This document shows positions 6,070-44,933 of a stretch of DNA of 44,933 nt, in pieces. Position 1 is the first letter of the stretch, and each line of letters opens with the position of its first letter. Source of the stretch: a virus (Duplodnaviria > Heunggongvirae > Uroviricota > Caudoviricetes); the IMG/VR virus record IMGVR_UViG_2541047866_000012; one strand, 5' to 3'. The position numbers and the translations under genes were made by a program. The notes beneath the pieces were generated by a model. That model saw nothing but the letters and a program-made list of their open reading frames with translations. It made no database searches and was not told the origin of the DNA.

Positions 6070-6894
6070 TCAGGCGGTGAAAGTACCAATAAAGGTTTCT
6101 ACTTTGCTGTCCTTGAATTTCTCAACAAGCAGATCACGAAATTCGTTAGCCATTTCCTCCTGCACTGCTTCCAGCTGAATAATGCGCAGAACCAGTACAG
6201 GACGATCGCCAGTGAGAATGCTGAGGCGTAATTTAAACGGACGTTCTTTCAGGCCTTCAAACGGAACGCATTTAAATTCAAATGCCACTGGCATAATGTC
6301 TTTGGTTTTCGCTTCGACAGACTCCATCAGAGAGCGTTTGCCGCTGAAGTCATTGTCTTCAAAATCAGCGGTCTGGTTTGCTTCAATCGTGATTTTACGG
6401 ACCGCCGCAGCCGCTTTTGTTGCCTGAATGGCGTCACCATTAGCATCAAAGCCCACAAGGTAGTCGGCCCAGTCTTCAATCCATTCTGCCAGTGACTTCT
6501 GGGAGTTACGCTCGCCATTAACAGACAACAGAGCAGAGAACGGTGCTGTCTTTTTCAGTTTGAGAGTGGCGGTGTTATCTGCGTGACCTGGTTCATCAAT
6601 AGTACCCAGATTAAGCACACTGACAGCACGCATATTATCAGCATCGATAAAGCAGCGGGTGCCTTCATCTGCAAGATCTTTAGAATAACGGGTAAAGTCA
6701 TCGATGCTGGCAGTGGAAAGCGCACCACGGAAACGGAAGCGATTTAAATTAAATTTTTCCAGATCATGAATGCGGAAATTCTCAGGCAATGCCACAGCAT
6801 CGGCACCAATCTTACTGATAATTTCATTAACACCCTGAGCAGAAATAAGGGCATGGATTTGATTAATTGCGGTTGCGTCTAAGTTCTGAGACAT
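6070..6894 (-). CDS. YfdQ-like phage protein (DUF2303-like)
   Basis: 274 aa; size and sequence recalled as CPS-53 YfdQ-like; sits in a yfdP-yfdT-like gene order. Confidence 0.75.
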
Positions 6895-6959
6895 AATAAG
6901 TCCTCACTATATAAAGATATTCAGTGATGAGATAAATAATCAGTTAATTAAGAACGATA

Positions 6960-7322
6960 TTAATGACCTGCTGCGCGGAGTTTTCCGTCAGGTTCACCGG
7001 CAAGAGTCAGTAATTGTCCCTGGTCTTCCTGCAGAATAGTCAGGCGACCACCGCGATTGACATACATCGGCGTTTCGGTGGTGTCTTCTTCGGAAATTTT
7101 CCCGCGGTTAGTTGGGCGAACATATGAGAGTTTGTGTTTGATTTTCACACGGTTCTCATCAAACGGTTCGATTTCCAGATTGAGTGAGACCTTCCCTTTG
7201 GTTTTCGTGTTCATCACACCGGAAGCGACTTCACTTAGAACTGCGCCGATTTTTGTTTCAAATACGCCGCCGTCCAGCTCCCCGATAAATGCCTGCACAT
7301 CAGTACTGCGTTCACTAGCCAT
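6960..7322 (-). CDS. Hypothetical phage early protein (first gene of leftward operon)
   Basis: Start at MASERS (ATG 7322) preceded by GAGGAG RBS; 120 aa; the upstream extension in the ORF track lacks an RBS. Confidence 0.7.
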   Translation of the reverse strand: MASERSTDVQAFIGELDGGVFETKIGAVLSEVASGVMNTKTKGKVSLNLEIEPFDENRVKIKHKLSYVRPTNRGKISEEDTTETPMYVNRGGRLTILQEDQGQLLTLAGEPDGKLRAAGH

Positions 7323-8000
7323 TTTGCTGCTCCTCATCATATCGACCCTGCAATGTCGGTTAGTTTCTCCACAAAACAGAGAAGAACACCTGCGGTGGTA
7401 GCCGCCCGGATGGATTGGGTTATGAGCCCGTCGTCCGGTGATGTTCTTCTCTGTTTTGTAAAAAGAGCGGTACCAGCCGGAAGCAAGTGTACAAACTGGT
7501 ACCGCCAAAGCAGTGGCTGTTGTGGTGACCGGTGCTGATCTCCGGCTTGCGGTTATTTCAGACTCTCACGGGCATTTAATTGCCCCGCCGAACAGCTCTT
7601 TTCCGCAATAGCTGCAATGTCTTTCGCGCATCAGCCTGCGCATTCACCACAACGCTGAGAGCACTTAGCCAGTTACGGCACCACACTTTGTCGCGGTTCC
7701 ATAAATGCCCTCATCGTTGCACCCTGGTCTCTTCCCAGGTGTCAAACCGAACCGCCACGCTGGTTAGGCGTCTTATCAGCATCATCATTGACTTGCACAT
7801 TCCGGCTACCTGGTTTGTTTGCCCGAGCAAGGAGTGGATTGTCCCCTTTAACGTCCCCAGACCGCTAACGACGCATGTGCCATACGCCGTGTTACAACCA
7901 AATTTTGTTAGTACCTTGTTTGTTTGTCTGGAAAGAAAGATAAAATGAAGTTGCGCATTATGCAAGTGTTTTTGTTGCGAGATATGCAATTTAATGGGTA

Positions 8001-9639: not shown

Positions 9640-10472
9640 ACAGTTTAACGGCAAATAACCGTTTGTCGCAACAGCTGGTGGTCAGTGTCGCTGCACACCT
9701 GTTGTTACGGCATGAATGCAGATTACCAAATCACCTGGCTGTAAGTAACCACAGAGAACTTTACCTGACTGTGGGGGGCGAGTTGTGCAGGAACTTAACC
9801 GCTGGTTTCGTGACGGAAGAGGACTTTATGTTCATGTTATTCGTTGGGAGCCAGAAACACAGCGCGTTATCTATCTTCGCAAAGACTACCCGCATGAGTG
9901 CTTTAGTCCTTTGTGGAAATTCAGGCGTGATTTTGTTGAGTGTGAAGGACCACCAGCACATTGATTCTGCCATTCCGGGACGTTACACTGTTCAGGCACC
10001 TTATAAAGCGGGTGCCGGGCGTGGCGCCCCGGAATTGCATACGGCGACAATTGGCGCGTTAGCGTCTTTTTTGTTGCTACAACTCAGCTATACCCAAATT
10101 ATGGTGGGCTGGGTGGGGGCACCGAAAGGTGCGCCGGTTTCCGTATGCGCCGGTTACGCCAACCCTGCTCAGTTCACCACCAGCGAAATTGGCGTTTCCG
10201 GTGGTGGAAGTTATCCATTGCATACGGAGGCTGCCATCATGGCTACTGTCCCAGCCCTCTCTCGTCTGAATGATGACGACTTACATAAACTCAGTTATGT
10301 AACAACTGCACTACGTGCTCTGCGCAAGGTAACTCTTTCGGATCCGCAGGCACATCAGGTTCTGGTAGAAACCCTTCTTAACTTGCAGGCTGAACGTATT
10401 CGTCTGGCGGATAAGGCTAATTTTCATATTCACCGTCTCCTTAATATCAGCGGAGGGCATCGTCATGCTTAA
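9636..10472 (+). CDS. Hypothetical protein (frame uncertain in 5' third)
   Basis: 278 aa; start and stop overlap neighbours; 3' half shows purine-first / pyrimidine-third codon bias; an alternative frame at 9785-9963 also reads protein-like. Confidence 0.5.
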   Translation: MNSLTANNRLSQQLVVSVAAHLLLRHECRLPNHLAVSNHRELYLTVGGELCRNLTAGFVTEEDFMFMLFVGSQKHSALSIFAKTTRMSALVLCGNSGVILLSVKDHQHIDSAIPGRYTVQAPYKAGAGRGAPELHTATIGALASFLLLQLSYTQIMVGWVGAPKGAPVSVCAGYANPAQFTTSEIGVSGGGSYPLHTEAAIMATVPALSRLNDDDLHKLSYVTTALRALRKVTLSDPQAHQVLVETLLNLQAERIRLADKANFHIHRLLNISGGHRHA

Positions 10473-10701
10473 TCCGTTGATTCTCAATATTTGCCGTTTT
10501 CTTCAGCGTAAAAAAACATCAATTCCTACAGTTGGGCAGTGGTACACCACGCCTGCAGGGCATGTTCTACGTGTTAGCCTGGTTGACCGTGAATGTCAGA
10601 AGGTGATTTGTGAACCGCTGGGCCGTAATTACCGCGTCAGTATGCCGCTTATAGCCTTTTGCTCCGGAAAAATGTTTAAGCGTCTGGGAGGTGTGGCGTG
10701 A
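10465..10701 (+). CDS. Hypothetical small protein
   Basis: 78 aa; GGAGGG RBS; start and stop overlap neighbours. Confidence 0.5.
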   Translation: MLNPLILNICRFLQRKKTSIPTVGQWYTTPAGHVLRVSLVDRECQKVICEPLGRNYRVSMPLIAFCSGKMFKRLGGVA

Positions 10702-10997
10702 ACTGTTTTCAGTTTGTGTGCGGATGTGCTTTCGATAACCCGATTCAGCGCCTGATTATGTTGCGTGTTTTGATGTCGGGTTCTTCAGACGGTGAAGGCG
10801 AGAGAGTTATTGATCATCAGGTGCTTGCTGATTTCTGCTGTTGTTCTAAGCAAGCGATATTCAGGGAAACCCTGGCACTGGAAAGAGCTGGTTATCTTCA
10901 TATCCGAAAAATTGCAACGCTTACTATTGATGCAAAAGCCAGACTACAACCTGCGCGTGGCTACACAATTCTCATGCTGCGGAAGGAGGTTGTATGA
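10698..10997 (+). CDS. Hypothetical protein, possible HTH
   Basis: 99 aa; GTG start with GGAGG RBS 7 nt upstream; overlapping stops and starts. Confidence 0.55.
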   Translation: MNCFQFVCGCAFDNPIQRLIMLRVLMSGSSDGEGERVIDHQVLADFCCCSKQAIFRETLALERAGYLHIRKIATLTIDAKARLQPARGYTILMLRKEVV

Positions 10998-11989
10998 GCC
11001 GTTACGCCCCCACACCGGAAGTTATGGCTATTGGTCAAATTAATATTTCCGGCAATGTTACACCTGCGACCTGGTGGAAATATATTCGACTACCCAGTGG
11101 GCGTCCGGATGCGACGGCTATCGCTCTGCTTTCAGAGATCGTTTACTGGTACCGCCCGACAGAGGTCAGGGATGAGCACACCGGAGCGTTGCTGGGATAT
11201 CGCAAGCGTTTTCAGGGCGACAAACTGCAAAGAAGCTACCAGGCGTTTGCTGAGCAGTTTGGTTTCGGGAAAAGGGAAACCGCAGATGCGCTGAAGCGTC
11301 TGCGCGATGCAGGGTTTATTACTCTGGATTTACGCACGGTGGAAATGCTCGATGGGGTGAAATGCAGCAATATTTTGTTTGTCGGGATCAACCCACAGGC
11401 AATTGCGGCCATCACCACACCTTCTTCTGTTTCGCCAGAAAGTAACAGCAATAATGCAATCAGCGATACAGCTATTACGTTAAAACGGAACACCCCCCGA
11501 CGTCATAACGGAACAGGGGATACGCCGAATGTTGATACAAATACAGAGATTACTACAGAGATTACTACAGAGATTACAACGGAGACTAAAAACACTATTG
11601 GCGCATCCGCTGACGCGTCTGCACCAGCGCGTTCTGCCAGACAGGAATATTCACCGGAATTTGAACAGGCCTGGCAGGAATATCCCAAACGTGCTGGTGG
11701 TAATTCAAAATCCGCCGCTTTTAAAGCCTGGAAAGCCCGAATCAGGGAAGGTGTGACACCCGAAACCATGCTCGACGGTGTGAAACGCTATGCCGCCTGG
11801 GTGCGTGTCTCTGGAAATACCGGTACCCAGTTCGTGAAGCAGGCGTCGACGTTCTTTGGTCCGGATCGTCATTTCGAAGAATCCTGGGAAGTTCCTGCAG
11901 TATCTGCAGCCAGACGCGAGGACCCGTACTTCAAAGCCAGTTACGACAACGTGGACTACAGCCAGATCCCGGCAGGATTCAGGGGGTGA
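10994..11989 (+). CDS. Replication initiator (O-like replisome organiser) with internal iterons
   Basis: 331 aa; N-terminal replisome-organiser-like region; internal EITTEITTEITTE encoded by 12-bp tandem repeats. Confidence 0.75.
   Translation: MSRYAPTPEVMAIGQINISGNVTPATWWKYIRLPSGRPDATAIALLSEIVYWYRPTEVRDEHTGALLGYRKRFQGDKLQRSYQAFAEQFGFGKRETADALKRLRDAGFITLDLRTVEMLDGVKCSNILFVGINPQAIAAITTPSSVSPESNSNNAISDTAITLKRNTPRRHNGTGDTPNVDTNTEITTEITTEITTETKNTIGASADASAPARSARQEYSPEFEQAWQEYPKRAGGNSKSAAFKAWKARIREGVTPETMLDGVKRYAAWVRVSGNTGTQFVKQASTFFGPDRHFEESWEVPAVSAARREDPYFKASYDNVDYSQIPAGFRG
11543..11587 (+). repeat. About 3.5 tandem copies of 12-bp unit ACAGAGATTACT inside the replication gene; candidate ori iterons
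   Basis: Repeats directly visible; lambda ori likewise lies inside gene O. Confidence 0.45.
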
Positions 11990-11991
11990 TT

Positions 11992-12480
11992 ATGAGTCTT
12001 TTGAATGAAGTTCAGAAATTCATTGAAGCCCATCCGGGGTGTACTTCTGGAGACATTGCGGATGCTTTTGCTGGTTACTCACGGCAGCGCGTTCTGCAGT
12101 CAGCAAGCAAGTTACGTCAGAGTGGGCGTGTGGCTCACCGTTGTGAAGGAGATACACGCAGACATTTCCCGCGCCTGACTGAGAGAGCGCAGGAGCCGGA
12201 ACCACAATCTGTTCGTGAAACCAGACCTGTGCGCAATTTCTATGTCGGCACTAACGACCCCCGGGTGATTTTGTGCCTGACCCGCCTGGCTGAAGAACTG
12301 GAGTCCAGGGGCTTATTCCGTCGAGCTGCAACGGTGTGGATGGAGGCATTCCGTGAAAGCCACTCCCAGCCAGAACGAAACAATTTTCTGGCGCATCGTG
12401 AGCGGTGCTTACGGAAAAGCAGCAAGCGCGCTGCATCGGGTGAAGAGTGGTATCTGTCAGGGAATTACGTGGGGGCTTAA
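11992..12480 (+). CDS. PerC-family-like transcriptional regulator with N-terminal winged-helix-like region (tentative)
   Basis: About 162 aa from ATG 11992 (AGGGGG RBS); C-terminal LAEELESRGLFRRAATVWMEAF resembles the PerC motif. Confidence 0.55.
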   Translation: MSLLNEVQKFIEAHPGCTSGDIADAFAGYSRQRVLQSASKLRQSGRVAHRCEGDTRRHFPRLTERAQEPEPQSVRETRPVRNFYVGTNDPRVILCLTRLAEELESRGLFRRAATVWMEAFRESHSQPERNNFLAHRERCLRKSSKRAASGEEWYLSGNYVGA

Positions 12481-15673: not shown

Positions 15674-16039
15674 ATGCGTGATATTCAAATGGTTCTTGAA
15701 CATTGGGGGGCATGGGTGGCAAATAATCACGAGGATGTCACCTGGTCGTCTATTGCTGCAGGATTTAAAGGACTAATCCCTTCAAAAGTAAAATCCCGCC
15801 CGCAATGTTGTGACGATGATGCGATGATCATTTGTGGGTGCATGGCTCGCTTGAAAAAGAACAACAGCGATTTGCACGATTTATTAGTGGATTATTATGT
15901 AGGTGGTATGACGTTTATGGCGCTTGCCCGTAAACATGGGCGTTCTGATTGCTGGGTTGGGCGTTTATTGCAAAAGGCTGAAGGTGTAGTTGATGGCATG
16001 TTAATGATGTTAGAAATTGAGCTAGAGATGGATCGTTAG
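15674..16039 (+). CDS. Q: Late-gene antiterminator Q (82/21-type)
   Basis: 121 aa from ATG 15674 (GGAG RBS); [34 protein letters not shown]...CGCMARLKK matches recalled Q-family sequences. Confidence 0.85.
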
Positions 16040-16081
16040 AAGACCTCTTATTGAGGGGGTAATTGAATCAGTTTAATGTGT

Positions 16082-16112
16082 GGGGAGTCGATTTATTCTC
16101 CCCATTTTATTT
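16082..16112. terminator. Bidirectional intrinsic terminator between convergent Q and lipoprotein genes
   Basis: Hairpin GGGGAG-N10-CTCCCC followed by ATTTTATTT; lies between Q stop (16039) and lipoprotein stop (16124). Confidence 0.65.
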
Positions 16113-16123
16113 AATTAATTTAC

Positions 16124-16570
16124 TTAAGGTTTTAATTCATCAAGACGTTGTTGGATAGTGTTTTTGCTTGCGTTGTCTGTTATAGCCATTTGTTGTACTT
16201 GCCCCATTGCCATTTGAGTTTCCATCCACATATCGGCCCACACTTTTGTATCGTTATTAACTTGAGCGATAGTAAATCTGACTTTTGATACCGGGGTTGT
16301 TGAATAGGCATTGCCGATTAACATTTGTCCAAAAACGGCAGAGCCGCCTTCCAGTTCTTTACCACATATAACACTGCTGTTATCCGCGTTGTAAATTATC
16401 AACCCTCTACTATTGCAGTAATTCACAAGGGCATCTTTGACTTTATCTTTTGTCGTATTTTGATAAACCCCCTCAGGTTTTCCTGATTGAGTTTTCTTTA
16501 TCAATGGTACGGAAGAAGTACAACCTGAAATGATAGTTGCGCTAAGTAATAGTACAGTTATTTTATTCAT
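16124..16570 (-). CDS. AT-rich predicted lipoprotein (moron), unknown function
   Basis: 148 aa; signal peptide with lipobox ISGC (Cys17); opposite strand to flanking phage genes; lower G+C by eye. Confidence 0.8.
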   Translation of the reverse strand: MNKITVLLLSATIISGCTSSVPLIKKTQSGKPEGVYQNTTKDKVKDALVNYCNSRGLIIYNADNSSVICGKELEGGSAVFGQMLIGNAYSTTPVSKVRFTIAQVNNDTKVWADMWMETQMAMGQVQQMAITDNASKNTIQQRLDELKP

Positions 16571-16840
16571 GTTTCTTATCCATTGTTAAGGGCATACCCA
16601 CACAATTATTTTTATTGGAGATGAATAATCAACCGTTTACAATCGTAAAAAATCAAATATGCTGTTAAGAGTGGTTACTTCGCCACACAACTTAAACCCG
16701 CCGCTGAGCGGTTTTTTTGTACCTGTAAACTTGGTGCAGTACAGTAAACACGCTGGTGGTCGTGAATACTGACTTTTTATCTTGCTGGCTTTTTAGACAA
16801 GAGTTATTGGTATGTCATGTTAATCAGAAGGGAAAAAGAC

Positions 16841-17194: not shown

Positions 17195-18247
17195 ATGAAA
17201 AATACTGTAAGAATAAACAGTGTTGATTTAATCAACGCTGATTGCCTGCATTTTATTCAGTCCCTGCCTGATGATTCCATTGACCTGATTGTTACCGATC
17301 CGCCGTACTTCAAGGTGAAACCCAACGGCTGGGACAATCAGTGGAAAGGGGACGAAGATTACCTTAAGTGGCTGGACCACTGTCTGGCCCAGTTCTGGCG
17401 GGTGTTAAAACCTGCCGGAAGCCTTTACCTGTTCTGTGGGCATCGTCTGGCATCTGATATTGAGGTCATGATGCGTGAACGTTTCAACGTGCTTAACCAT
17501 ATCATCTGGGCGAAGCCGTCCGGACGTTGGAATGGGTGTAATAAAGAAAGTCTGCGCGCATATTTTCCTGCCACAGAGCGCGTTCTGTTTGCTGAACATT
17601 ACCAGGGGCCATATCGCGGCAAAAGTGACGGCTATGCGGCAAAAGAAAGGGAACTCAAACAGCACATAATGGCACCGCTGATATCGTATTTCAGGGATGC
17701 TCGTGCCGAACTGGGTATAACGGCAAAACAAATTGCCGAAGCCACAGGTAAGAAAAATATGGTTTCCCACTGGTTTGGTGCCAGTCAGTGGCAGTTGCCG
17801 AATGAGGCTGACTATCGGAAGTTACAGGCACTGTTTTCCCGTATAGCGGCAGAGAAGTTTCAGGAACAACAACTGGAACAACCACACCACCAGCTGGTGG
17901 CATCTTATGATTCACTGAATCGCAAATATTCTGAATTGCTGGATGAGTTTAAATCTCTCCGGCGCTATTTCTCCGTATCAGTCTCCGTGCCTTATACCGA
18001 TGTCTGGATGCATAAACCCGTTCAGTTCTACCCGGGTAAACATCCGTGTGAGAAACCGGCGGATATGCTCAGGCAAATAATCAATGCCAGTAGTCGACCT
18101 GGTGATCTGGTTGCTGATTTTTTTATGGGATCCGGTTCCACAATAAAAGCAGCAATGGCGCTGGGGCGTCGGGCCTTAGGTGTTGAGCTTGAGTCAGAGC
18201 GGTTTAACCAGACAGTGAAAGAGATAAACGAGCTGGTGGGGAAATAA
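17195..18247 (+). CDS. DNA methyltransferase (beta-class N6-adenine / N4-cytosine, orphan)
   Basis: 350 aa; motif [10 protein letters not shown] near N-terminus and motif I FFMGSGST near C-terminus. Confidence 0.85.
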
Positions 18248-35224: not shown

Positions 35225-38200
35225 ATGGGTAAAGGCAGCAGTAAGGGACATACCCCGCGCGAAGCAAAGGACAATCTGAAGTCCACGCAGTTGCTGAGTG
35301 TGATCGATGCCATCAGCGAAGGGCCGATTGAAGGTCCGGTGGATGGATTAAAAAGCGTGCTGCTGAACAGTACGCCGGTGCTGGACAGTGAGGGGAATAC
35401 CAACATCTCCGGTGTCACGGTGGTGTTCCGGGCAGGTGAGCAGGAACAGACACCGCCGGAGGGATTTGAATCCTCCGGATCCGAGACGGTGCTGGGTACG
35501 GAAGTGAAATACGACACGCCGATCACCCGGACCATCACGTCTGCAAACATCGACCGTCTGCGCTTTACCTTCGGTGTGCAGGCACTGGTGGAAACCACCT
35601 CAAAGGGGGACCGGAATCCGTCGGAAGTCCGCCTGCTGGTTCAGATACAGCGTAATGGTGGCTGGGTGACGGAAAAAGACATCACCATTAAGGGCAAAAC
35701 CACCTCGCAGTATCTGGCCTCGGTGGTGGTGGATAACCTGCCGCCGCGCCCGTTTAATATCCGGATGCGCAGAATGACGCCGGACAGCACCACAGACCAG
35801 CTGCAGAACAAAACGCTCTGGTCGTCATACACCGAAATCATCGATGTGAAACAGTGCTACCCGAACACGGCACTGGTCGGCGTGCAGGTGGATTCGGAGC
35901 AGTTCGGCAGCCAGCAGGTGAGCCGTAATTATCATCTGCGCGGGCGTATTCTGCAGGTGCCGTCGAATTATAACCCGCAGACGCGGCAATACAGCGGTAT
36001 CTGGGACGGAACGTTTAAACCGGCATACAGCAACAACATGGCCTGGTGTCTGTGGGATATGCTGACCCATCCGCGCTACGGCATGGGGAAACGTCTTGGT
36101 GCGGCGGATGTGGATAAATGGGCGCTGTATGTCATCGGCCAGAATTGCGACCAGTCGGTGCCGGATGGCTTTGGTGGCACGGAGCCGCGCATCACCTGTA
36201 ACGCTTACCTGACCACGCAGCGTAAGGCGTGGGATGTTCTCAGCGATTTCTGCTCGGCGATGCGCTGTATGCCGGTATGGAACGGGCAGACGCTGACGTT
36301 CGTGCAGGACCGACCGTCGGATAAGGTGTGGACCTATAACCGCAGTAATGTGGTGATGCCGGATGATGGCGCGCCGTTCCGCTACAGCTTCAGCGCCCTG
36401 AAGGACCGCCATAATGCCGTTGAGGTGAACTGGATTGACCCGGATAACGGCTGGGAGACGGCGACAGAGCTTGTGGAGGACACGCAGGCCATTGCCCGTT
36501 ACGGTCGTAACGTCACGAAGATGGATGCCTTTGGCTGTACCAGTCGGGGGCAGGCACACCGCGCCGGGCTGTGGCTGATTAAAACGGAACTGCTGGAAAC
36601 GCAGACCGTGGATTTCAGCGTCGGCGCAGAAGGGCTTCGCCATGTACCGGGCGATGTTATTGAAATCTGTGATGATGACTATGCCGGTATCAGCACCGGT
36701 GGTCGTGTGCTGGCGGTGAACAGCCAGACCCGGAAGCTGACGCTCGACCGTGAAATCACGCTGCCATCCTCCGGTACCACGCTGATAAGCCTGGTTGACG
36801 GAAGTGGCAATCCGGTCAGCGTGGAGGTCCAGTCCGTCACCGACGGCGTGAAGGTGAAAGTGAGCCGGGTTCCTGACGGCGTTGCCGAGTACAGCGTGTG
36901 GGGGCTGAAGCTGCCGACGCTGCGCCAGCGCCTGTTCCGCTGTGTGAGTATCCGTGAGAACGATGACGGCACGTATGCCATCACTGCCGTGCAGCATGTA
37001 CCGGAAAAAGAGGCCATCGTGGATAACGGGGCGCACTTTGACGGCGACCAGAGCGGCACGGTGAATGGTGTCACGCCGCCAGCGGTGCAGCACCTGACTG
37101 CCGAAGTCACCGCAGACAGCGGGGAATATCAGGTGCTGGCGCGCTGGGACACGCCGAAGGTGGTGAAGGGGGTGAGCTTTATGCTTCGCCTGACCGTGGC
37201 AGCGGATGACGGCAGTGAGCGGCTGGTCAGCACGGCCCGGACGACGGAAACCACATACCGCTTCACGCAACTGGCGCTGGGGCGGTACACGCTGACAGTC
37301 CGGGCGGTAAATGCGTGGGGACAGCAGGGCGATCCGGCGTCGGTATCGTTCCGGATTGCCGCACCGGCAGCACCGTCGAGGATTGAGCTGACGCCGGGCT
37401 ATTTTCAGATAACCGCCACGCCGCATCTTGCCGTTTATGACCCGACGGTACAGTTTGAGTTCTGGTTCTCGGAAAAGCGGATTACCGATATCAGGCAGGT
37501 TGAAACCACAGCCCGCTATCTTGGTACGGCGCTGTACTGGATAGCCGCCAGTATCAATATCAAACCGGGCCATGATTATTACTTTTATATCCGCAGTGTG
37601 AACACCGTTGGCAAATCGGCATTCGTGGAGGCCGTCGGTCGGGCGAGCGATGATGCGGAAGGTTACCTGGATTTTTTCAAAGGCAAGATAACCGAATCCC
37701 ATCTCGGCAAGGAGCTGCTGGAAAAAGTCGAGCTGACGGAGGATAACGCCAGCAGACTGGAGGAGTTTTCGAAAGAGTGGAAGGACGCCAACGATAAATG
37801 GAATGCCATGTGGGGCGTCAAAATTGAGCAGACCAAAGACGGCAAACATTATGTCGCGGGGCTTGGCCTCAGCATGGAGGATACGGAGGAAGGCAAACTG
37901 AGCCAGTTCCTGGTTGCCGCTAACCGTATCGCGTTTATTGACCCGGCAAACGGGAATGAAACGCCGATGTTTGTGGCGCAGGGCAACCAGATATTCATGA
38001 ACGAAGTGTTCCTGAAGTATCTGACGGCTCCCACCATTACCAGCGGCGGTAATCCTCCGGCATTTTCCCTGACACCGGACGGGCGGCTGACGGCGAGAAA
38101 TGCTGATATCAGCGGTAACGTGAATGCGAACTCCGGGACGCTCAATAATGTCACGGTAAATGAAAACTGTACGATTAAGGGCATGCTGGAGGCGAACCAG

Positions 38201-38638
38201 GTCAGAGGTGACTTCGTTAAAACTGTATCCAAATCATTCCCGAAAAAGGCTGGTACGTGGGGTAACACGGAAACACCAAACGGGACGGTTACAGTCACCA
38301 TTTACGATGATCATAACTTTGACCGCCAAATCATTATTCCGCCCATTATTTTTAACGGTGTGGCGTATGACGATCCGGGGAGCGGTAATAACCCGGGAGG
38401 TACGCGATACACGGGTTATGGTTTTGAAGTTCGCAAAAATGGCGTATTAATCGCATCCAGAGAAACTAAAGGAGCCATTCCCGGTAGTTACAGTGCGGTT
38501 ATTGATATGCCGAGTGGTGGTGGTAACGTCACTCTGGAGTTTAAGATTTTCCAGAAAGGCAATCAGGGCGCAGGAAACATCACAGACTGTACGGTGATTG
38601 TGACCAAAAAAGCTGCTTCCGGTATCAGTATCCGTTGA
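35225..38638 (+). CDS. Tail tip / host specificity protein J, divergent C-terminal receptor-binding domain
   Basis: 1137 aa; first about 980 residues near-identical to recalled lambda J; last about 150 residues (from about nt 38180) differ. Confidence 0.96.
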
Positions 38639-43041: not shown

Positions 43042-43800
43042 TTAACATTCTGGATTTTTTATTTCTAAATCAGATAAAGCATTAATTCTTATTTTTTCTA
43101 AGGCTTTATCCATGGCCCCCTTGATTCTGTATCCATAATCATCCGGTTCTTCATATTCCTGTGGGGACGGATTTGTACCAATATTCTCAATCAATTCATT
43201 TAAAATAACTGTTACTTCTTTATTAAGAAGAACTGCTTTAGTTAACATCATCTCTGTTAATGCTGTGAAGGCTAGGCTAAGTTTCTGTTGTAGCTCTTTA
43301 TTTTTTAATTTTAGATCTTCATCGTTTAGTGCTTTATCACGGTCTTCGTGAGCCTGTTGTACTTCATCCCAAAACTGCTTTTCTTGTTCTTGATTAAAAT
43401 ATCCTTGATAACTATTGGCTACATATGTTGGCATCATGTGAATCTCAATAATTTCAAATTCATTATCAGCCCATTTTTTTATACTAAGTAACTGTGTGTA
43501 AATGTACTCATACATATCGTACTTTTTTTGCCAGATTTGTTGAGAAATCCACAACTCAGAAGTAATCTTTTTTTCTATATCTTTGATAGTTGTTGTATTT
43601 AATGCTAACTGCTTTCTGAGTATTTCATAGTTAGCGTTGGTAGCAGAAATTTTTGCTTTTTCAGTTATAAAAGAAACAATAAAGTTCACTATGAGAGCTA
43701 CAATAATAATAGCGAAGCTCAACCCCAAAATCTCTGTGGTTGAGAAATTGGATGACTGTAATGCTTTGATAAGTTCAAAAAACTGTTTTTCTGTGAGCAT
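43042..43800 (-). CDS. AT-rich single-TM coiled-coil membrane protein, unknown function (cargo gene B)
   Basis: 252 aa; TAAGG RBS; TM helix about residues 24-45; Lys/Glu/Gln-rich coiled-coil-like remainder. Confidence 0.8.
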   Translation of the reverse strand: MLTEKQFFELIKALQSSNFSTTEILGLSFAIIIVALIVNFIVSFITEKAKISATNANYEILRKQLALNTTTIKDIEKKITSELWISQQIWQKKYDMYEYIYTQLLSIKKWADNEFEIIEIHMMPTYVANSYQGYFNQEQEKQFWDEVQQAHEDRDKALNDEDLKLKNKELQQKLSLAFTALTEMMLTKAVLLNKEVTVILNELIENIGTNPSPQEYEEPDDYGYRIKGAMDKALEKIRINALSDLEIKNPEC

Positions 43801-43898: not shown

Positions 43899-44933
43899 TC
43901 AAGGAGGTGAGATTGTAGAGGCGTTACCTTGTTCTATCACACCAGACCTAATCTTGTAACTACCAAGGATGTTGACCGTTTTATTATTTTTCATCGCGTC
44001 AAAAATTAAGCCTATTTCATCAGGGTCATTGATAAAACTGGTATCAACATAGATCGGGAATGAATCATCACCTGTTGGCTCATGGCAGCTTAACGTTAGC
44101 TTATCGGCTGAGCGTTTTATACTATCAATGACAACTTCCAATGTTTGCTGCTCTGACTTAGCCTTTTCAATTGGGTTCTTGATGATTTCTTGAACCTGAC
44201 CTTGCGAAAGTTCAATATTGCTGGCCCCGCGGATCGTCACTTTGTCTGCATCAGATGCACCTTTAAGAACTCCAGTGTATGCCTTAGCGGTGTGCTCTTG
44301 GATACCTTCGGCGCGCTCTATCGTATCAATACCTTCATGTGCTTTTATTGCAGACAGCATACCATCGCGTAGAATTGTCATCCGCTCGGATTCTGCTCGC
44401 TGTTTTGCTTCTTCCTGTTGTAACTCAATAGTTTTGGTTTCGACTTGTGTCTGATGATCTAAGTAGGACGTACCGACCCATGCGCCGCCTAAAACTAAGA
44501 CAGCAAACAGGAAACACATTGTTTTCTGTCTTGGGCTCATACCTTGTGTTACCTTCTCAAATGCGTTACCAAAGGAATCAATAAGTTCTTTAACTGAGGT
44601 GATAATTTCTGTACAGCCAGGTTTGATAGTAAAAACCAACTCTGCAGCTTCTCTATCCTCAGCAGTGAGCTTCTGTAAGTTAGAGGTTTTGTACTTGATT
44701 AGAGTAAAAACCTTGTACATCTCAGTTTGAAATTCACAAATACCCTGTGCCAAACCTGCAGGCAGAGTACCATTATACTTATCTTCATCACCAAAAAATT
44801 TGAAATCAATACTTTCTAAGAAGTTTAACTTCAAATTTTCAATGTGGATTTCTTCGCCTGAAATAACTCGGTCGAAAATATTTCCTATATCATCAATATC
44901 ATTGATTTCATAGGTCTGAATTGCATCTTCCAT
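43899..44933 (-). CDS. AT-rich single-TM membrane protein, unknown function (cargo gene A)
   Basis: 344 aa; start ATG is the last three bases of the window; internal TM helix about residues 138-158 (TMCFLFAVLVLGGAWVGTSYL). Confidence 0.8.
   Translation of the reverse strand: MEDAIQTYEINDIDDIGNIFDRVISGEEIHIENLKLNFLESIDFKFFGDEDKYNGTLPAGLAQGICEFQTEMYKVFTLIKYKTSNLQKLTAEDREAAELVFTIKPGCTEIITSVKELIDSFGNAFEKVTQGMSPRQKTMCFLFAVLVLGGAWVGTSYLDHQTQVETKTIELQQEEAKQRAESERMTILRDGMLSAIKAHEGIDTIERAEGIQEHTAKAYTGVLKGASDADKVTIRGASNIELSQGQVQEIIKNPIEKAKSEQQTLEVVIDSIKRSADKLTLSCHEPTGDDSFPIYVDTSFINDPDEIGLIFDAMKNNKTVNILGSYKIRSGVIEQGNASTISPP

Follow-up and report, generated by a model that had tools for sequence, protein, structure and literature searches.

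Cor of phages phi80, N15, and HK022 and Llp of phage T5 are small outer-membrane phage lipoproteins with a lipobox that inactivate FhuA for superinfection exclusion. HK97 gp15, an inner-membrane protein, and the lipoprotein Ltp of TP-J34, which comes from a Gram-positive host, block DNA entry via the tape-measure or injection step. Known entry-exclusion genes lie in tail or receptor-binding surroundings, as is the case for HK97 gp15, for cor near J, and for T5 llp next to pb5. To our knowledge, only a handful of exclusion lipoproteins (Cor, Llp, and Ltp) are understood. Here we analyze a lipoprotein gene on the minus strand of IMG/VR record IMGVR_UViG_2541047866_000012 (Caudoviricetes), a stretch of 44,933 nucleotides (nt) referred to below, at its full length, as the window. 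The gene appears to be a moron, that is, a self-contained cargo of a lambda-like Escherichia coli prophage; it belongs to a large, unnamed family of phage-borne lipoproteins, and the role that we tentatively consider most likely for its product is superinfection exclusion, by blocking phage entry at the envelope.

A phage-borne lipoprotein family

The open reading frame (ORF) of 148 amino acids (aa) is present exactly as given in a preliminary description of the window (Table 1), and it is a real gene under purifying selection, conserved beyond chance, because the proportion of nonsynonymous differences (pN, 0.18-0.19) is far below that of synonymous differences (pS, 0.80-0.85, saturated) in comparisons with the Salmonella and Jejubacter orthologs, which show 70-72% aa identity, and because it has hundreds of homologs. 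In RefSeq, the protein is annotated as 'hypothetical protein' (WP_001033965.1, strain LS4). The low G+C content noted in that description is borne out as well: the ORF has a G+C content of 0.38 (0.33 at third codon positions), compared to 0.498 for the window, 0.44 for the antiterminator gene Q, and 0.48 for the methylase gene, and falls within the lowest 6.6% of 447-bp segments by G+C.

The precursor has the properties of a bacterial lipoprotein. Its N-terminus parses as MNK-ITVLLLSATI-ISG-C17, with a basic n-region (Lys), an uncharged hydrophobic core, and the lipobox I-S-G-C, which conforms to the pattern [LVI][ASTVI][GAS]C, and the Cys is located within the expected span of about 15-35 residues. 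Cys17 (codon 16520-16522) is invariant in both alignments analyzed (A1, which comprises closer homologs, and A2), and a lipobox is found in 208 of the 238 full-length family members, in support of the ISGC lipobox that had been proposed earlier. The signal peptide of the precursor looks cleavable, and its N-terminus gives a weak match to Pfam LPAM_1. The residue at position +2 is Thr; in the 208 homologs with a lipobox, this position is occupied by A, V, T, S, M, G, L, Q, F, or I, and in none of them by Asp. In E. coli, Asp at +2 is the inner-membrane retention signal, and lipoproteins with other residues in this position are sorted to the outer membrane by Lol. Given the lack of Asp at +2, Lol-dependent sorting is predicted, and the mature lipoprotein would reside in the outer membrane.

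The only strong match of the lipoprotein in PHROGs is phrog_3152, a family of unknown function. Pfam and NCBIfam scans yielded nothing above noise, with no curated Pfam family above the threshold; PADLOC models yielded no families at E up to 0.1, and phmmer and profile searches of PDB sequences returned only noise at the level of the signal peptide. A word-indexed search of 5.8 billion proteins retrieved 31 relatives, all from Enterobacterales, all labeled 'hypothetical', and none with a Pfam domain. A profile search against 1.84 billion cluster representatives detected 823 clusters, defined at 50% identity, at E up to 1e-3; with the cutoff set to 1e-10, the number was 408. The members span alpha-, beta-, and gammaproteobacteria, including soil and marine hosts of the alpha and beta classes. 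Two cysteines, C52 and C69, and the motifs T-x-SG-x-PE, GN-x-YSTTP (GNAYSTTP in this lipoprotein), and ETQMA-x-GQ (here ETQMAMGQ) are at least 90% conserved in the alignments. The homology searches revealed no relationship with a housekeeping protein; such a relationship, or a lack of signal-peptide cleavage, had been named in the preliminary description as speaking against its interpretation. A literature search on the RefSeq accession, the PHROG number, and the names of two phages that carry the gene found no functional study of the lipoprotein; one paper names these phages, PhiR40.1 and PhiR55.1, solely as test phages. The family is large and phage-borne, and no database has a name for it; the gene itself is of a known kind, the prophage envelope-lipoprotein moron.

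The cassette with the lipoprotein gene is carried by 185 of the 5426 complete E. coli genomes, its carriers including human, animal, and environmental strains, and by two of 50,697 phage records, PhiR40_1 and PhiR55_1. Both of these phages are temperate, and E. coli ECOR13 and C are given as their hosts.

Several observations on family members and their labels stand apart from these results. No search supported the 'VirB7' label that a Xenorhabdus homolog has in UniRef; the label seems to be a misannotation prompted by the lipobox. An Rz1-like spanin identity was likewise rejected: the PHROG spanin matches are confined to residues 1-33 or 1-45, with E values of 0.013 at best, and genes for Rz/Rz1 are already present in the phage. 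C-terminal extensions are found in distant members (P0051, P0054, P0056, and P0058; P0100, P0105, P0116, P0142, and P0187; and P0106): some have a Cys-rich module, GPGFETY..C..GD....RCEFGNCR, and others have PDZ domains (one of these also SHOCT) or TPR/YfiO-like repeats.

In a confident AlphaFold2 model obtained with a 21-sequence alignment (predicted local distance difference test score 85, predicted template modeling score 0.75), a signal helix and a linker are followed by a beta-alpha-beta-beta-alpha-beta-beta-beta-alpha domain, so that the mature protein, of about 131 aa, is predicted to form a single alpha+beta domain. The modeled topology appears to be BamC-like or helix-grip-like, a fold common to some envelope lipoproteins, and the likeness is at the fold level only; Foldseek comparisons with viral structures (BFVD) and with the PDB gave no match at E 1e-3 or better. 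As far as can be judged from the model, BamC domains, Flpp3 (DUF3568), and DUF4468 are similar small alpha+beta domains of the helix-grip-like type, several of which occur in envelope lipoproteins. The conserved motifs map to loops (residues 29-34, 86-93, and 117-124), and this concentration suggests a binding surface in the predicted structure. C52 and C69 probably form a disulfide.

Homologs of the lipoprotein gene are located almost always on phages or other mobile elements, at many different sites. In prophages of Salmonella and Jejubacter, the gene is inserted into the tail region between K and I, one gene from J. The Salmonella ortholog has the anatomy of a classic moron: amid the tail operon, its stop codon is directly followed by a strong hairpin and a T-run. 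A scan of IMG/VR with alignment A1 detected 76 loci, 50 of the E. coli type and 25 diverged (48-70% identity). In 23 of the 25 diverged loci, the lipoprotein gene is located inside the tail operon, always co-oriented, at no fewer than five insertion junctions: between the chaperone and the tape-measure protein (TMP) genes, TMP and M, M and L, K and I, and a Dit/tail protein and NlpC-P60. Elsewhere, the homolog is found between RecA-like and LexA-like/RusA genes (Phytobacter); immediately ahead of the endolysin gene and after a helix-turn-helix (HTH) gene that diverges from the genes on the transposase side (a Mu-like prophage of Acinetobacter); after an HTH gene at a prophage end near J (Paraburkholderia); or adjoining portal, primase, terminase, resolvase, or integrase genes (contigs of alpha- and betaproteobacteria). 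The designation of the gene as a moron in the preliminary description therefore holds up, given its presence/absence polymorphism, deviant composition, promoter-like site and hairpin, and the many insertion sites of the family.

In many tail-embedded loci, M, L, K, I, and J share 70-92% protein identity with their counterparts in phage N15. In N15 itself, K and I are adjacent, without an insert, and the N15-like modules that have the lipoprotein gene between K and I also carry a Cor homolog (55-62% identity) after J.

Other features of these neighborhoods were recorded as well. In five loci (L083-L086 and L066, about 10300-12260), J is followed by homologs of cor and of the N15 genes 22 and 23, which are located at 6528-7855 in N15 (L092); phages with such N15-like modules therefore have genes for two distinct small lipoproteins among their tail genes. 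In three loci (L067-L069, 6464-7144), a gene for a multi-pass membrane protein with a zinc ribbon (DUF2545 and Zn_ribbon_3) directly follows the lipoprotein gene and may be a second cargo of the same island. A marine TARA contig (L096, 6474-7528) has tandem genes for 175-aa proteins, the second of which is a family member, with methylase, DUF5681, and terminase genes adjoining. A plasmid-like E. coli contig, JAOSCJ010000003.1 (L011, 4467-6453), encodes a 45%-identical paralog that adjoins ToxN and lies 1.36 kb from mcjA, the gene for the microcin J25 precursor, whose translated peptide ends GGAGHVPEYFVGIGTPISFYG; the contig also contains genes for H-NS and mcjBCD-like genes. The idea of a fixed operon with an HTH gene and a small upstream ORF, as seen in Jejubacter, Acinetobacter, and Paraburkholderia, was dropped because the small upstream ORFs at these loci belong to no common family.

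Possible roles at the cell envelope

If the lipoprotein acts in superinfection exclusion, the precursor would be processed by Sec, Lgt, and LspA, and Lol would send the lipoprotein to the inner leaflet of the outer membrane. Transcription would be driven by the gene's own sigma-70-type promoter, antisense to the early and late phage transcripts; because of this orientation and the promoter-like site, expression would be independent of Q-driven late transcription and would most plausibly take place in the lysogen. The lipoprotein would then bind a conserved periplasm-facing component needed for genome entry, either an outer-membrane receptor or channel, approached from the periplasmic side, or the incoming tape-measure or tail-tip proteins, and infection would be stopped at or after adsorption. 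An entry-related role is favored because homologs occupy tail operons. The loop motifs, the conserved Cys pair, and the PDZ and TPR fusions in distant relatives fit a periplasmic ligand-binding module.

Cor and Llp, which like the homologs of this lipoprotein are linked to the tail-tip or receptor-binding module, could serve as a model for such a periplasm-facing entry block. The differences are nevertheless considerable. A BLASTP comparison of the lipoprotein with N15 Cor (gp24) gave no match at E up to 100; Cor, at 78 aa, is about half the size, and its predicted fold class is different. T5 Llp is also much smaller. Furthermore, Cor co-occurs with lipoprotein homologs in the same phages, so that the lipoprotein is no replacement for Cor, and, in contrast to Cor and Llp, its motifs are conserved far beyond enterobacteria. 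By analogy, the block of DNA entry by HK97 gp15 and Ltp, the latter likewise a lipoprotein, could illustrate action after adsorption, and homologs of the present gene are, like the genes for these proteins, tail-operon morons next to the tape-measure gene; the gp15 and Ltp families did not turn up in the Pfam, PHROG, and PDB searches, with no direct homology comparison made.

A number of findings weigh against superinfection exclusion or limit its support. The 25 diverged loci fall into only about six related groups and are thus less independent than their number implies; at least one distant member seems to be chromosomal, and tail operons are general sites of moron insertion, too. Homology to characterized exclusion proteins was detected neither in the BLASTP comparisons with N15 Cor and Bor nor in Pfam, NCBIfam, PADLOC, or the viral structure library. 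No pairing of the lipoprotein with a receptor via the J C-terminus was seen: the last 299 aa of the tail-tip protein J of this prophage (37739-38638, plus strand) match phage HannyBb at 100% identity and the J protein of a lambda h434 hybrid at 92%, whereas the J C-terminus of PhiR55_1 shows 54% identity to that of this prophage despite the shared lipoprotein. Tail-embedded homologs are already accompanied by Cor, so that a simple blocker of the phage's own receptor would be redundant there, and the strong conservation across bacterial classes is unlike that of receptor-specific blockers. The block of one defined receptor, which the preliminary description had put forward, is accordingly weakened by the co-occurrence with Cor and the differing J C-termini.

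The target is probably not a single variable receptor, because the motifs are retained from enterobacteria to alphaproteobacteria, Cor is already present in the N15-like carriers, and the J C-termini differ. This leaves room for a broader proposal, doubtful as it may be, in which the lipoprotein is a general entry-exclusion module that acts on a conserved periplasm-facing component, such as TonB-dependent transporters or TonB, the BAM machinery, or the incoming tape-measure/tail-tip complex, and is the founding member of an unnamed family. If true, this would explain the repeated insertion into tail-tip operons and the coexistence with receptor-specific blockers such as Cor.

The same conservation of the loop motifs across proteobacteria would also fit a conserved target, for instance, the TonB-dependent machinery, in protection of the envelope from agents other than phages, that is, an immunity-like function or uptake block against bacteriocins, microcins, peptidoglycan hydrolases, or type VI secretion system effectors, for example, by damping a TonB-dependent transporter such as FhuA from the periplasm. 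Microcin J25 and N15 both use FhuA, and the family includes both the 45%-identical paralog near mcjA and the tail-embedded orthologs in N15-type modules with Cor. However, these are two contextual coincidences without statistical support; the J protein of this prophage resembles the 434 type rather than the FhuA type, FhuA is already covered by Cor in N15-like phages, and the lipoprotein shows no similarity to lysozyme inhibitors or immunity proteins in Pfam or PDB searches. Such protection hence seems improbable.

A reverse-strand slot between Q and the candidate late promoter

In the window, the lipoprotein gene is part of a mosaic module of low G+C content that is inserted between Q and the candidate late promoter region (Table 1). 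To the left of the module, similarity to other QuuD-type prophages breaks off within Q or at its end; to the right, similarity is seen again from about 16644-16663 or 16695 onward. All neighboring phage genes, including a DUF968 gene, are on the plus strand, so that the lipoprotein gene alone is reversed among them, as had been observed at the outset. Q and the lipoprotein gene are convergent and 87-92 nt apart in 48 of 49 viral loci.

Table 1. Features of the lipoprotein locus and its surroundings in the window
Feature	Position	Strand	Basis
Lipoprotein precursor coding sequence, 148 aa, ATG start	16124..16570	-	ORF list; full-length match to phrog_3152, E 4.9e-104; purifying selection
Signal peptide and lipobox, residues 1-17, MNKITVLLLSATIISG before C, then TSS	16520..16570	-	Sequence reading and alignments
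G+C-rich hairpin between the Q and lipoprotein stop codons	about 16080..16103	both	Terminator scan and folding
Promoter-like site of the lipoprotein gene, TTGATT-16 nt-AATAAT, ~35 nt upstream of the ATG	16605..16632	-	Consensus scan, 9/12 matches
Candidate late promoter pR', TTTACA-16 nt-TATGCT	16636..16663	+	Consensus scan and conservation
Candidate tR' of the late leader, short hairpin followed by a T7 run	16700..16719	+	Terminator scan; weak fold, -6.4 kcal/mol, z -1.1
Mosaic cargo module (hairpin, lipoprotein gene, promoter region), G+C 0.36	16040..16656	.	Similarity breakpoints, composition
Antiterminator Q, 121/126 aa, PF06530 E 4e-51, 84% identical to DLP12 QuuD	15674..16039	+	Pfam, BLASTP
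Small ORF, 67/75 aa, phrog_331	ends 17044	+	ORF list, PHROGs
N6-adenine DNA methylase, orphan-looking	17195..18247	+	PADLOC (MTase_II, E 4e-152)
Holin, lysozyme, Rz/Rz1	from 18315	+	ORF list

The hairpin between the two convergent genes folds stably on both strands (-14.4 kcal/mol on the plus strand and -11.2 kcal/mol on the minus strand, z about -4 on each), but a T-rich tail follows it on the plus strand only; on the minus strand, it is followed by ACACAUUAAAC, with no U-tract. The hairpin thus looks like a terminator on the plus strand. The preliminary description had the gene bracketed by a bidirectional terminator: the hairpin is there and flanks the gene on its 3' side only, and its sequence does not bear out action in both directions. 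The location between Q and the lysis cassette also stands, with the qualification that the small ORF and the methylase gene intervene before the holin gene.

Upstream of the lipoprotein gene, its promoter-like site and the candidate pR' are arranged back to back, and a leader of ~35 nt separates the candidate pR' from the hairpin of the candidate tR'. DLP12 and E. coli 55989 have a nearly base-identical counterpart of the element at 16636-16719 ahead of essD, again beyond a reverse-strand cargo gene that follows a QuuD-type Q, in these cases a porin gene. Among the 50 viral loci of the E. coli type, the candidate pR' is at a fixed distance in all 49 that extend far enough; in phages with a different Q type, similarity to the window starts only at about 16657 or 16695. 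From this pattern, we infer that 16636-16719 comprises pR', the leader, and tR', so that the cargo would sit between Q and its target promoter. The general layout of Q, pR', sigma-dependent pause element (SDPE), and terminator is taken from a preprint (10.1101/651190). Q-driven late transcription from the candidate pR' would start downstream of the lipoprotein gene and run away from it.

The element, which consists of TTTACA/G, 16 nt, TATGCT, GTTAAGAGTGGTTACTTCG, a hairpin, and a T-run (window 16636-16719, plus strand; L009 8113-8195; L095 near 4921), is shared by three QuuD-type prophages, in each of which it lies beyond a different reverse-strand envelope cargo, namely, a porin, a lipocalin lipoprotein, and the lipoprotein described here. 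This arrangement suggests a hotspot of antisense cargo between QuuD-type Q and pR'.

The position of the gene had been likened to that of stx and other conversion genes. The stx genes lie downstream of pR'/tR', are co-oriented with the late genes, and are Q-dependent. The comparison is apt only loosely: the lipoprotein gene is antisense and upstream of the candidate pR'/tR' and does not occupy the precise stx site, nor does it have the layout of Stx-type Q-dependent cargo. The correct precedent, judging from sequence comparison, is the reverse-strand slot after QuuD-type Q, which contains an nmpC/ompC-like porin gene in DLP12 and E. coli 55989 and a gene for a lipocalin-family lipoprotein (PF08212) in other strains. 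In the porin morons nmpC of DLP12 and lc of PA-2, the slot, orientation, and architecture are the same as here, with an antisense gene after QuuD-type Q followed by the promoter-leader-terminator element and the lysis genes. The products are unrelated in sequence, a 16-strand porin as opposed to a 148-aa lipoprotein, although both are outer-membrane proteins, in the present case by prediction. The Lc porin acts by replacing OmpC, and nothing comparable is known for this lipoprotein.

This company of porins and a Blc-like lipocalin lipoprotein in the slot, together with the antisense orientation, AT-richness, and own promoter shared with lambda bor and DLP12 nmpC, would also fit a conversion factor that contributes to host fitness or virulence through an envelope property (serum or complement resistance, as with Bor/Iss or TraT, stress, adhesion, or membrane homeostasis), with no direct effect on phages. 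The presence of the cassette in human, animal, and environmental E. coli and a modeled fold resembling that of BamC and Flpp3-type envelope lipoproteins point the same way. Bor/Iss of lambda and DLP12 is likewise the lipoprotein product of a moron that lies close to the lysis cassette, oriented against the late genes, and is presumably expressed by the prophage; its gene, however, follows the lysis genes, whereas the lipoprotein gene precedes them. A BLASTP comparison with Bor gave E 0.2 over 42 residues, which places the lipoprotein outside the Bor/Iss group, and there is no Pfam match, TraT included. Furthermore, the family is found in phages of soil and marine alpha- and betaproteobacteria, for which serum resistance is irrelevant, and a conversion factor of this kind would leave the strong bias toward tail-operon insertion unexplained. 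We therefore regard this alternative as unlikely.

The location of the window copy near the lysis cassette could instead suggest a helper in the lytic cycle, either masking receptors on the debris of lysed cells, which is the second role of T5 Llp, or modulating lysis or peptidoglycan hydrolysis. In most of the diverged relatives, the gene is co-oriented within the late tail operon and would hence be transcribed with the late genes, and the copy in the Mu-like prophage of Acinetobacter directly precedes the endolysin gene. The copy in the window, however, is antisense and upstream of the candidate pR', out of reach of late transcription, and an Rz/Rz1 spanin pair is already encoded elsewhere in the phage, the PHROG spanin matches of the lipoprotein covering the signal peptide only (E 0.01 or weaker). 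A lytic function is, in our assessment, as improbable as protection from bacteriocins and similar agents.

The 3' end of Q and the cassette occur together in the 185 genomes, and it is invariably a single Q allele that accompanies the cassette. On our reading of these sequences, any cargo placed between Q and the promoter on which it acts would be inherited along with this Q/pR' pair. The gene might then be a hitch-hiker without current function in this prophage, kept by its location, but this is very improbable in view of the strong purifying selection on the lipoprotein gene and of the intact lipobox, Cys pair, and motifs in diverged orthologs at unrelated insertion sites.

Beyond the slot, the small ORF and methylase pair is ~98-99% identical to its counterparts in cdtI, mEp460, and many Stx2c phages, which have a different Q. 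At the prophage ends, there are three reverse-strand ORFs, of 338 (1976-2992), 252 (43042-43800), and 344 aa (43899-44933), the first two of which are strongly AT-rich (G+C about 0.27-0.35). None of the three has a Pfam or PADLOC match, and two belong to phrog_5157 and phrog_6191, both of unknown function; these ORFs may be further cargo or defense genes.

Implications for prophage biology

The envelope proteins encoded by prophages decide which phages, and sometimes which toxins or host defenses, reach the lysogen. The locus described here documents a reusable slot for antisense cargo between QuuD-type Q and the candidate late promoter. If the lipoprotein is an exclusion factor, the protein families known to act in superinfection exclusion would be joined by a new one, and the lipoprotein would bear on the prediction of host range in phage therapy, with ~3% of the complete E. 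coli genomes being carriers. Its conserved loops would then indicate that phage genome entry involves a conserved step at the envelope.

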